A DNA stretch of 30,204 nucleotides from an uncultured Methanosarcinales archaeon (GTDB lineage Archaea > Nanobdellota > Nanobdellia > Woesearchaeales > JAGVZT01), in contig CAYQPU010000020.1 in NCBI GenBank assembly GCA_964419615.1, forward strand, positions 1 to 30,204, given 5' to 3'. The notes beneath the pieces are model-generated. The model made no database searches, was not told the DNA's origin, and saw only the letters and a program-made list of their open reading frames with translations. Position numbers and translations under genes: made by a program. Of the stretch, positions 3,906 through 20,962 are shown one piece after another (position 1 is the first letter of the stretch; each line of letters opens with the position of its first letter).

Positions 3906-4008
3906 GCCTCCGTAGCATAGTAGCTATTGCGGCAGAAGATTCAGAATATCTTGAATCGTGCCGAACCTTGTAAGCTGCAGGTCGAGGGTGCAACTCCCTC
4001 CGGAGGCT
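3906..4008 (+). tRNA. tRNA-Thr(UGU) with a 30-nt intron at position 30/31
   Basis: Exons 3906-3935 and 3966-4008 give a 73-nt cloverleaf: acceptor GCCTCCG/CGGAGGC, anticodon stem GCAGC/GCTGC, loop CT-TGT-AA, T stem GAGGG/CCCTC, U73. No encoded CCA. Confidence 0.93.
3936..3965 (+). other. tRNA intron, non-canonical position 30/31
   Basis: BHB-type junction: central helix CGGC/GCCG, bulges AG|A and AA|C, inner helix GATTC/GAATC. Confidence 0.9.
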
Positions 4009-18476: not shown

Positions 18477-19416
18477 AAGCACAATCAAACATATTCTTTA
18501 TCACAAGAGTTGCATAGCATCCAGGATTTAGTGAAAAGCAGATTTTTATTTTCTTTTTTCCAGAATTTAGTTCATCATCTTTCAGATCTCCAATTTCCAA
18601 ATCATTTACAGCTGAGAATATTTTTCTGTATGTTCCTTCACTGCACAATTCAGGCAATTGTCGTGTGATGAAATCTCTTTGATTTATTTCCTCTTTTTTT
18701 AGTTCAGTCAAACAGATATCCTCTATTAAATCATCTTCAAATTCAGTGCTATATCCTACTATTGGAAAATCAAGTTTGGGATTTTTACATTTTTCAAGAT
18801 ACTGAGCCACACATTTGTTCCAGATGTAACTTTGGTAAGCGTGAATGTAGATACTGAGTATTTTTCTTGGAATTTTTCTAAGGGCCCCAATGTATTCTTT
18901 TGGTTGCTTTTGTAGGGATTCTAACATGTCATCATTATCTATCAAATCCACAGCTTCTTTGAGTTTCCTCTGTAAAATGAATTTACCCACTTTGTGGTTG
19001 TTTTCATTTCTTCCAAATCTTTGAGTGTCAAAAAAATTGACAACCTTGCTGACTTTTGTTGGCCTTTTTTCAATGTCTCTAACAATGATTTCAAAATGAT
19101 TTTCATCAAGATCTCCTAAAGATATTGGTTTTTGGCCTTTACCAATTACTTCAACTATAATATCTGGAAGTTTTTTGTTTGAGATTCTTCCCTTTACAGA
19201 ACAGATTTGCTCTGTTATTGCATGTCTGTCTTTGTTTCCAGCATAGCCAAAGAATTTCCTTGGAATTCTTGTGATCTTTGATATTGCTTGAAGAGCTGCA
19301 TTTGTTGTGTAGTTTGTTTTCTTTAGTTTAAAGTATGTGTAAGGTCCATGGTCAGATACACTAACTGAACTTGTTTCTTTTACAATAAAATCACTAGGGA
19401 CTTGTTTTATCTTCAT
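18466..19416 (-). CDS. truD: tRNA pseudouridine(13) synthase TruD
   Basis: KQVPSDFIVKE, YAGNKDRHAITEQ (catalytic Asp), NFFDTQRFG, YQSYIWN, FSLNPGCYAT. Confidence 0.93.
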   Translation of the reverse strand: MKIKQVPSDFIVKETSSVSVSDHGPYTYFKLKKTNYTTNAALQAISKITRIPRKFFGYAGNKDRHAITEQICSVKGRISNKKLPDIIVEVIGKGQKPISLGDLDENHFEIIVRDIEKRPTKVSKVVNFFDTQRFGRNENNHKVGKFILQRKLKEAVDLIDNDDMLESLQKQPKEYIGALRKIPRKILSIYIHAYQSYIWNKCVAQYLEKCKNPKLDFPIVGYSTEFEDDLIEDICLTELKKEEINQRDFITRQLPELCSEGTYRKIFSAVNDLEIGDLKDDELNSGKKKIKICFSLNPGCYATLVIKNMFDCASMN

Positions 19417-19491
19417 TTTGTATATGCTAATACAAAAGATATTAAAAGAGTTTTTGTTTTCTGACTTATGCGAGCCTGTAGCCTAGTCCGG

Positions 19492-19660
19492 CGAACTTTT
19501 AGGAAAACACAAGGGAACCAAAGATTCCCTGTGCCAGGAAAACTACTTTTTCCTTGGGTTCGATCAAAACACAAGGGGCTTACAGCCCCTTCCCGTGGTC
19601 AATATGAAAACTATTTAACCACGACACTTGATGGATTTACAATATTAATTGTTCGGATAT
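19492..19660 (+). other. tRNA intron 1 (169 nt, position 19/20, D loop)
   Basis: BHB: central helix GTCC/GGAT, bulges GG|C and AT|A, inner helix GAAC/GTTC. Confidence 0.85.
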
Positions 19661-19848
19661 ATAGGGCAGCAGCCTCCTACGCTGATGAAGAATCTCGGAG
19701 TAGTACCCTTGTGGTATGAAGAGAGTTAGCTGAAGCGCAAGAAAGCTGCGGGTCGGGGGTTCAAATCGACCTTTTAAAAAAAGGTCGAACAAAACAAATG
19801 GGACTTGCAGTCCCATGACGTGACCATCACAAATACAAGATAGTCACG
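19560..19848 (+). repeat. Duplicated 64-nt structured module in introns 1 and 3 (19560-19623 and 19785-19848)
   Basis: 43 of 64 identical without gaps; five compensatory base-pair changes. Confidence 0.85.
19680..19743 (+). ncRNA. tRNA intron 2 (64 nt, position 37/38); candidate box C/D guide sRNA
   Basis: Terminal stem CGC/GCG, box C TGATGA 19683-19688, C'-like GGTATGA 19713-19719, box D CTGA 19730-19733. The splice motif is relaxed (CTCC against CAAG gives 2 of 4 pairs) and box D' is unclear. Confidence 0.6.
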
Positions 19849-19905
19849 GTACAAAATTTGGTCTGGTACTAGTTTTGTTCGAATTAAGTAAAAGTTCGTT
19901 GAAAG
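19766..19905 (+). other. tRNA intron 3 (140 nt, position 59/60, T loop)
   Basis: Central helix TTCA/TGAA, bulges AA|T and AG|T, inner helix CGACCTTTTA/TAAAAGTTCG (9 of 10 pairs). Confidence 0.85.
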
Positions 19906-19939
19906 TCCTCCCAGGCTCGTTTATTTAATTGGGGATTTT

Positions 19940-20962
19940 ATGAAAAAGACATTGTTTACTGCTGGTACCTTGTTGATTGGTATAGTTATTTTTATTTATG
20001 CAATCAAGATTATTGGTGTTGAACAAATTGTTAACCAGTTTAGAACTATCAAAACAACACACATCCTGCTTTATTTATTTGTCTCATTTATTTTAGTTGC
20101 TGTGCTTATGTTTAAATGGCAGTATATTTTAAGAACTTTTGGTTATAAAGTTTCTTTTTGGAACCTTTTCATGTACAGACAAATGGGTTATTCTATTGGT
20201 TATGTGGTACCGTCTTTTTATATTGGTGGTCAGACAATCAAAGCTTTGTTTTTAAAAAAGCACGAGATCCCTACAACCGATGCTGTAGCTTCTGTGTTAA
20301 TTGATAGAGCAGTTGAACTTCCACTGAATTTTCTATTAGCATGTTTTATGTTCATTTTAATAATCACTACACTTAATTTACCTCTTTATATGATTATCAT
20401 ATTAGCTGTAATTCTGACAGCGGTAATCGCCTTTGGAATTTTATATTTTTATAGGGTGTTTAATAAAAAATATTTTTTCTCCACTATCACACAAAAAACT
20501 TTTTTGAAAAGATTTAAGTTTATTTCAAAGTTTCAGAGTAAATTTGAGGAGACTGAATCTAATCTCATAAAGTTCTTTAATCACGAACGCCAGCATTTTA
20601 TTACTGCTTTGTTGTTCTCATGTGTATTATGGTTTTTGATGATGCTTGAATTTAAGACTGCACTGTTGATTGTTGGTTTTAATGCCTCACTTGCTCAAAT
20701 TTACTTGGTTGTTACCATGACTGGTTTTGCTATGATGTTTCCTGTACCAGCATCTATTGGAGTTATGGAATTAAGCCAGATTGCTATTGCAGTCATGGTT
20801 GGTATTCCTCCAGCTGTTGCTGTTGCATTATCACTGTTAGTTAGAACAAGAGACTTTATGTGGATCTTGCTTGGAATTGTTGGATATTTTCAACATGGAA
20901 CTAGTTATGTTAAAACCCTTGTTACAGATATAAAAAATGGAAATGACAAAAAAGGCTCTTGA
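19940..20962 (+). CDS. UPF0104/lysylphosphatidylglycerol synthase TM-domain (flippase-like) membrane protein
   Basis: KWQYILR, GYSIGYVVPSFYIGGQTIK, SVLIDRAVE, FPVPASIGVMEL, LLVRTRDFMW. Confidence 0.85.
   Translation: MKKTLFTAGTLLIGIVIFIYAIKIIGVEQIVNQFRTIKTTHILLYLFVSFILVAVLMFKWQYILRTFGYKVSFWNLFMYRQMGYSIGYVVPSFYIGGQTIKALFLKKHEIPTTDAVASVLIDRAVELPLNFLLACFMFILIITTLNLPLYMIIILAVILTAVIAFGILYFYRVFNKKYFFSTITQKTFLKRFKFISKFQSKFEETESNLIKFFNHERQHFITALLFSCVLWFLMMLEFKTALLIVGFNASLAQIYLVVTMTGFAMMFPVPASIGVMELSQIAIAVMVGIPPAVAVALSLLVRTRDFMWILLGIVGYFQHGTSYVKTLVTDIKNGNDKKGS

Follow-up and report, generated by a model that had tools for sequence, protein, structure and literature searches.

What is the structured RNA module that occurs in two copies inside an interrupted tRNA gene of an archaeon? 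The question arose from a window of 30,204 nucleotides, the whole stretch of DNA that was analysed, in which the two copies had been noticed from the letters alone. The original prediction held that they may be an intron-borne RNA with a function of its own, such as a protein-binding RNA, a guide or a mobility signal for intron spread, and pointed to DPANN genomes. The organism is indeed a DPANN archaeon. The source genome (G000) belongs to the Woesearchaeota, comprises 1.48 Mb with 33% G+C and is 99% complete; its sole congener is Ca. Woesearchaeota archaeon SuakinDeep_MAG79_5 (G001).

The two copies had been placed in two tRNA introns. Both introns belong to one and the same gene, that of tRNA-Arg(CCU). 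Its four exons, joined in silico, yield a 75-nt cloverleaf that ARAGORN recognises as tRNA-Arg(cct); the unspliced gene is detected neither by ARAGORN nor by Rfam. The three introns measure 169 nt (D-loop), 64 nt (anticodon stem) and 140 nt (T-loop). Copies of the module reside in introns 1 and 3, and intron 2 is devoid of it. The positions of all these features are compiled in the Table. The window holds a second tRNA gene at 3906-4008 (+), which contains an insertion of about 30 nt and is the only tRNA of the window that Rfam detects (42.6 bits).

Table. Features of the tRNA-Arg(CCU) gene, its introns and related loci. Positions without a contig name refer to the window.
Feature	Position	Strand	Remark
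Exon 1, tRNA-Arg(CCU)	19472..19491	+	tRNA positions 1-19: acceptor 5' strand, D-stem 5' strand, first part of D-loop
Intron 1, 169 nt, holds module copy 1	19492..19660	+	D-loop after G19; BHB scan 10/10
Intron 1, S5 strand	19492..19500	+	pairs with 19556-19562 (P1) or with 3'-terminal GTTCG 19651-19655 (BHB outer helix)
Module 2, two-hairpin insert in P1 loop	19501..19557	+	recurs in G000 and G001 introns
Linker CAAAACA, copy 1	19565..19571	+	AAAA columns invariant in 29 copies
Hairpin 1, copy 1, 7 bp and 5-nt loop	19573..19591	+	covariation
Hairpin 2, copy 1, 6-bp stem and 18-nt variable top	19594..19623	+	covariation
Intron 1, 3' closing strand TTGTTCG into central-helix GGAT	19649..19658	+	folds
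Exon 2	19661..19684	+	positions 20-42: D-loop end, D-stem 3' strand, anticodon arm with CCU
Intron 2, 64 nt, C/D-box-like, without module	19685..19748	+	3' strand of anticodon stem
Exon 3	19749..19765	+	positions 43-59: variable loop, T-stem 5' strand, T-loop TTCAAA
Intron 3, 140 nt, holds module copy 2	19766..19905	+	T-loop 59/60; BHB junction
Intron 3, S5 strand, common to two mutually exclusive helices	19767..19775	+	partners 19779-19787 or 19890-19898
P1 3' strand, local hairpin with S5	19779..19787	+	P1 seen in centroid structure
Closing helix, 5' strand	19785..19795	+	perfect 11 bp with 19872-19882; MFE structure
Hairpin 1, copy 2	19798..19816	+	covariation, position match
Hairpin 2, copy 2	19819..19848	+	covariation, position match
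Closing helix, 3' strand, includes TTGTTCG	19872..19882	+	MFE structure
B' strand (19890-19898), spacer T, then TGAA (19900-19903)	19890..19903	+	BHB outer and central helix
Exon 4	19906..19919	+	T60, T-stem 3' strand, acceptor 3' strand, discriminator G
RNase P RNA insertion	C3:47792-47904 (L013 about 293-405; L054)	-	just 5' of GAGGAAAGTCC block
Module 3 introns, G000	C2:50625-50738, C13:17267-17383, C13:23347-23453, C21:21351-21462, C32:19824-19935		

Intron 2 deserves a remark of its own. A repeated GCTG leaves its boundary uncertain by up to 4 nt, and its splice sites, like those of two module copies in anticodon loops, are placed approximately, not to the single base. Its box-like elements are TGATGA (19683), a C'-like TATGAAG (19715) and CTGA (19730), and it is the sole weak C/D match of Rfam across 19400-19980 (sR23, E = 0.54). 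Directly upstream of the D box, 11 nt agree with the 23S rRNA gene around C1:10948-10958 at 10 of 11 positions; a D-guide of this kind would put a 2'-O-methyl group on a C in a conserved ...AACUCUCUUAAGG... stretch of 23S rRNA. In intron 2 of the orthologous gene of the congener, no such C/D-like boxes are found. Two L7Ae-family proteins (Pfam Ribosomal_L7Ae) and fibrillarin are encoded in the source genome.

The module is built from a linker, a hairpin 1 of 7 bp, a hairpin 2 with a 6-bp stem and, in most cases, also a third hairpin plus a closing helix. Much of its original description can be retained. The stretches 19560-19623 and 19785-19848 align without gaps at 43 of 64 identical positions, and hairpins, linker (starting at 19790 in copy 2) and the downstream TTGTTCG (19649 for copy 1, 19875 for copy 2) are found where they had been located. 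The apical part of hairpin 2 is variable among copies. Five base pairs had been proposed to change on both sides: four of them covary throughout the family, but the fifth, inside the 18-nt loop, lies outside the RNAalifold consensus.

This consensus, calculated from 20 copies, comprises the 7 bp of hairpin 1 and the 6 bp of hairpin 2, with compensatory changes at 11 of the 13 pairs. In hairpin 1, 98.5% of the cells are paired and 6 of the 7 pairs show double changes; in the stem of hairpin 2 this applies to 5 of the 6, the sixth being an invariant G-C. G.U cells number 6 and A.C cells 3 in the two hairpins together, an asymmetry too small to be decisive. When 29 copies from two species are considered, the percentage of paired cells is 92.9 versus 78.4 ± 1.0 in shuffles, and double changes are seen at 12 of 14 tested pairs; of the other two, one is an A-U that never varies and one an additional test pair, for the most part unpaired. 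Double-change cells amount to 62, as compared with 18 ± 4.5 after shuffling, and none of 500 shuffles reaches the observed values. With slid partners, pairing does not exceed 44%.

The comparison between the species leads to the same conclusion. It relies on six copy pairs, of which five share the tRNA and the position and one consists of nearest neighbours in different host tRNAs. Paired columns differ in 15 of 156 cases (9.6%), unpaired ones in 69 of 291 (23.7%); among the changed base pairs, 5 are compensatory, 2 one-sided and 2 broken. Strong covariation and the slower, mostly compensated change of the stems between species indicate that the fold is under purifying selection where the module is located, as had been supposed from two copies. 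Apart from the stems, several unpaired positions are invariant in all 29 copies, namely the AAAA stretch within the linker, the base that ends the loop of hairpin 1 and one T in the apical part of hairpin 2. This invariance hints at a specific contact.

No known RNA family accounts for this fold. The original prediction had recognised neither a C/D nor an H/ACA RNA, and rightly so; nor does any Rfam family fit. Across the window, Rfam 15 returns one unrelated tRNA at gathering score and nothing else; at E ≤ 10, it yields only noise across 19400-19980. The conserved columns of the 29-copy alignment contain no C, D, C' or D' box, no K-turn and no antisense element; tandem G.A, the mark of a K-turn, is absent from the alignment, and so are a pseudouridylation pocket and a conserved ACA. 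The trinucleotide 3' of hairpin 2 is ACA in a subset only and elsewhere reads ACT, ACC, GTA or ATA. On this evidence, interpretations of hairpins 1 and 2 as K-turn, C/D, H/ACA or anticodon-loop mimic were dropped.

How far, then, does the module extend beyond the window? It was searched with a covariance model (R1) made from 20 copies, alongside iterated nhmmer; the core as modelled spans 75 nt. The source genome contains 21 matches to it with scores of 47-89 bits, and each was placed by reading its flanking sequences. Fourteen are located in T-loop introns at 59/60, three in D-loop introns after G19 (Arg-CCU, Arg-UCU and Glu-CUC) and two in anticodon-loop introns (Thr-CGU and Ser-CGA). The remaining two are a single insertion in the RNase P RNA, matched on both strands in line with its quasi-palindromic shape. 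Taken together, the matches represent at least seven classes of anticodon and three positions within tRNAs, in addition to the gene for RNase P RNA. None of the 21 is intergenic or lies in a protein gene, and all 19 tRNA-intron copies are in sense orientation.

The distribution is narrow. Seven genera of the family and 53 genomes from other families in the order were searched with R1. Across the family, the copies number 21 in the source genome and 10 in the congener, then 1, 2 and 1 in three other genera; three further genera, at 93-100% completeness, have no copy. The 53 genomes gave one marginal match only. Exact-pattern scans of genome and metagenome contigs returned only the congener and chance terminator-like bacterial hairpins that score at most 24 bits with R1. 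The original prediction hinged on homologues, covariation and a lack of Rfam matches; homologues are indeed present in related genomes, the stems covary and Rfam has no counterpart. Two of the single copies occur outside recognisable introns. That of G002 (L021, G002:C48:1-1679) immediately precedes a tRNA on its 5' side, with an 8-nt direct repeat of that tRNA's first bases flanking it; that of G007 (L022, G007:C39) follows an uninterrupted tRNA-Leu at a distance of about 60 nt and adjoins a short duplicate of the 3' part of this tRNA.

Between the two congeners, the family shows both inheritance and turnover. Same-site copies of the same tRNA are mutual nearest neighbours with 77-89% identity, which implies that the intron family predates the species split. 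Other sites have changed since. The D-loop intron of tRNA-Arg(UCU) measures 117 nt and holds the module in the source genome, but is about 24 nt long and empty in the congener; the T-loop intron of tRNA-Arg(CCU) carries a different cargo in the congener; and the intron core of tRNA-Lys(CUU) of the congener is 93% identical to that of its own tRNA-Leu, whereas the Lys intron of the source genome belongs to another subfamily. Since orthologous sites differ in cargo, length or subfamily, the family copies itself between genes.

The introns prove to be modular. A simple scan counts about 27 genes with a 59/60 intron in the source genome, and 20 of these share a common 5' chassis. In a 201-genome sample, the T-loop chassis start is found 18 times in the source genome, 14 times in the congener, 5 times in G003 and 0-3 times in the other genomes. 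The cargo within the chassis differs. Module 1, the one studied here, is the commonest. Module 2 is also encountered at C10:1571-1786 and C26:21683-21848 and at the congener's loci L025, L028, L036 and L038; it is present in the T-loop intron of tRNA-Leu of the congener and absent from its orthologue in the source genome. Module 3 is a different, nearly identical single hairpin in five chassis-bearing T-loop introns of 82-92 nt in the source genome. Eight short T-loop introns have no cargo at all. Tandem or nested chassis, that is, two successive P1-plus-linker units before the module, occur at C13:36874-37073 and C26:2140-2320 in the source genome and at L019 and L030 in the congener; the arrangement is kept in both species in D-loop introns of tRNA-Glu.

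Both junctions of the window that were examined, T-loop and D-loop, form bulge-helix-bulge (BHB) motifs, with the T-stem or the D-stem as outer helix. At intron 3, the T-stem is the outer exon helix, TTCA:TGAA is the central helix, the bulges are AA/T and AG/T, and a 9-bp outer helix, S5/B', completes an hBHBh' motif. At intron 1, the central helix is formed by GTCC with GGAT and the bulges are GG/C and AT/A; this junction attains 10/10 in a generic BHB scanner, which is noisy, gives many scores of 9/10 by chance and is useful only for D-loop junctions. For the tRNA-Thr intron, the same scanner proposed an implausible BHB. In some copies of the family the BHB is relaxed by a spacer base or a first-pair mismatch. 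The predicted folds of the D-arm with intron 1 and of intron 3 have z values of -3.8 and -6.2, respectively.

A peculiarity of the T-loop introns is the double use of their 5' end. S5, the nine bases after the first intron base, can pair locally to form P1 or with B', the nine bases just upstream of TGAA. In 20 T-loop introns, P1 has 87 of 100 cells paired versus 73.4 ± 2.3 in partner shuffles, and B/B' has 80 of 100 versus 68.1 ± 2.3; in both cases none of 2000 shuffles reaches the value. Position 4 is mismatched in P1 in 13 of the 20 introns and paired in B/B' in 18, with four pair types. In intron 3, the MFE structure contains B/B' together with the 11-bp closing helix, the centroid P1. P1 and B/B' are mutually exclusive and, judged by these pairing statistics, both maintained. 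Because both alternative pairings of S5 are maintained, a folding switch at the splice site, acting during or after transcription, is likely. The cargo seems to contribute little to the predicted junction: when it is dinucleotide-shuffled, the predicted probability of the BHB central helix declines from 0.58 to 0.52 (in T-arm context only), an effect that is clear in only a few introns. This small drop agrees with the original view that splicing alone hardly needs the fold.

The RNase P RNA is a case apart. In the source genome (Rfam, 101.5 bits), it has a 113-nt insertion with the module between P2 and P3. The RNase P RNAs of the congener and of five other genera have a plain P3 without insertion; a similar insertion at the same place is seen in G006, an unpublished genome of another genus. 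The BHB scan detects no credible BHB at this insertion, for which reason it is probably retained in the mature RNA. For lack of a convincing BHB there, the module is not strictly an intron element. The 23S rRNA gene (C1:9003-12670; L075 4-3671) is oversized, with 3668 nt versus the 2987 positions of the model; the surplus of about 680 nt would be introns or expansions, and R1 has no match on it. The source genome further encodes an IS200/IS605-type Y1 transposase at C57:900-1560 (115 bits). Its gene is flanked by hairpins of its own and by a repeated CTATCGCTA motif, neither of which is related to the module of the introns; part of a second Y1 copy is seen at C2:79974-80084.

What is the fold good for? 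That the excised introns, probably circularised, constitute a multicopy pool of functional non-coding RNA, in which the core of two hairpins is bound by a protein or has an action in trans, we consider rather improbable. Of course, the strong structural selection and the invariant unpaired bases would suit such a function, and so would a cargo fold that is not needed for predicted BHB formation and a module that also resides, apparently unspliced, in RNase P RNA. There is even a precedent of functional intron RNA, the C/D RNA of tRNA-Trp (PMC4090602), and 10-21 copies would mean a high dosage. Each single copy, however, is dispensable, as orthologous sites without the module or with other cargo demonstrate. 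The module was not found in three genera of the family (93-100% complete) or in other families of the order, and it lacks a K-turn, C/D boxes, a conserved ACA and an Rfam match. Also, its loop sequences vary, which makes a guide function unlikely. With at least three interchangeable cargo modules in a common chassis, with a module that is present, absent or swapped at orthologous sites and is not found in 3 of 7 genera, an RNA with its own function, as originally proposed, is not supported; since the cargo is interchangeable and its distribution patchy, an essential role in trans is unlikely. Quite doubtful, too, is the idea of a stable, probably circular intron RNA pool with the core as a protein-binding or RNase P-associated domain and a P1-versus-B' switch that times splicing. 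If true, it would define a class of intron-borne regulatory RNA instead of passive cargo.

Alternatively, the hairpins could be kept for recognition at the DNA level, the module being a MITE- or REP-like element that is moved into the loops of short introns by a transposase such as the Y1 HUH enzyme. The closing helix does form an inverted repeat, direct repeats of the host hairpin 3' strand (P1-3', B') bound the module, and introns that are otherwise orthologous may contain or lack the latter. Tandem or nested chassis units, the G002 copy with its 8-nt direct repeat at a tRNA 5' end, and the Y1 gene of the source genome may be quoted in favour as well. We nevertheless regard this possibility as unlikely. 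All 21 matches of the source genome are inside RNA genes and the 19 tRNA-intron copies all in sense; three pairs of filled and empty sites show no consistent target-site duplication; the stems vary with compensation and offer no fixed recognition sequence; and in P1, 12 G.U cells versus no A.C cell favour pairing of the transcribed strand. The link to the Y1 transposase was dropped, since the hairpins and ends around its gene are unrelated to the module. Spread could also proceed via RNA, if the fold were a signal for reverse splicing into BHB-like sites, followed by reverse transcription and recombination. In favour of this, every new site is a position in a structured RNA that is competent for a BHB, and the orientation is always sense; but no reverse transcriptase (RVT_1 domain) was found in the 99%-complete genome, the RNase P insertion site has no BHB, and we know of no reverse reaction of EndA/RtcB. 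Such a route is hardly credible. Among the three roles originally considered, a mobility signal for intron spread still comes closest to the data, although no mechanism of mobility emerges from them.

In our judgement, the module is, with fair probability, the commonest cargo of a lineage-specific, modular and proliferating family of long (110-191 nt) BHB introns, its fold being under purifying selection. That these are tRNA introns is supported by the restored cloverleaf, by hBHBh' at both junctions and by the genes for EndA and RtcB in the same genome. EndA is represented by one alpha-type gene (a 219-aa ORF with N domain and catalytic domain, region C3:32082-32342), RtcB ligase by a match of 538 bits. 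That the introns are paralogous is evident from homologous introns in non-homologous tRNAs and at different positions, with gain, loss and replacement between congeners. Excision of the introns would fall to EndA and ligation of the exons to RtcB. The family may multiply at the DNA level via gene conversion or illegitimate recombination, which could exploit the flanking T-arms and D-arms, which are conserved, and the ends that the introns have in common. Selection might keep the cargo folded simply because a compact, inert domain is needed inside an essential pre-tRNA, with no action in trans. This last rationale is weak, as cargo shuffling hardly alters the predicted BHB central helix.

Related phenomena are known. 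Thermoproteales have paralogous introns at several tRNA genes and positions, for which spread at the DNA level is assumed (PMC4090602, citing Fujishima et al. 2010). The family described here resembles them in its narrow lineage, in the differences between close relatives, in the putative DNA-level spread and in the many tRNA genes with two or three introns. It differs by length, 110-191 nt as opposed to a published range of 11-129 nt with medians of 12-25 nt for archaeal tRNA introns (PMC4090602), by its modular chassis and cargo, the covarying multi-hairpin core and two alternative 5'-end pairings, and by a DPANN host with a single alpha-type EndA and a module that is also found in the RNase P RNA gene. 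Heavy disruption of tRNA genes has been linked to DPANN EndAs of the alpha type that possess an extra loop (PMC5829648). A structured, conserved RNA inside a BHB tRNA intron is likewise not without parallel: archaeal tRNA-Trp harbours a box C/D sRNA (Clouet d'Orval 2001; Singh 2004; reviewed in PMC4090602), and intron 2 of the present tRNA-Arg gene is similarly C/D-like. The module, in contrast, has no C/D/C'/D' boxes, no K-turn and no antisense element, and instead of one tRNA and one target there are multiple copies in many tRNAs. With bacterial REP/REPIN and MITE palindromes it shares the short multicopy hairpins, the lineage-specific bursts and nested copies; unlike these, it is confined to RNA genes, has a single orientation in tRNA introns and covarying stems, and the ends of the one Y1 transposase gene found are unrelated to it. 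In the literature we found no paper that describes such an intron family in DPANN.

Only 10 tRNA genes of the 99%-complete genome reach the Rfam threshold, since long introns, up to three per gene, interrupt most of them. Gaps in DPANN tRNA sets have been noted before (PMC5829648), and the intron family provides one concrete reason why these sets look incomplete. The way in which archaea gain tRNA introns is still under discussion (PMC4090602; bioRxiv 10.64898/2026.10.13.758758). A family that is defined by sequence, was active recently and combines filled and empty sites in a pair of congeners with swappable modules and an insertion in RNase P RNA offers a usable system for studying this process, and both the covarying fold and the mutually exclusive helices at the splice site are directly testable with recombinant EndA.
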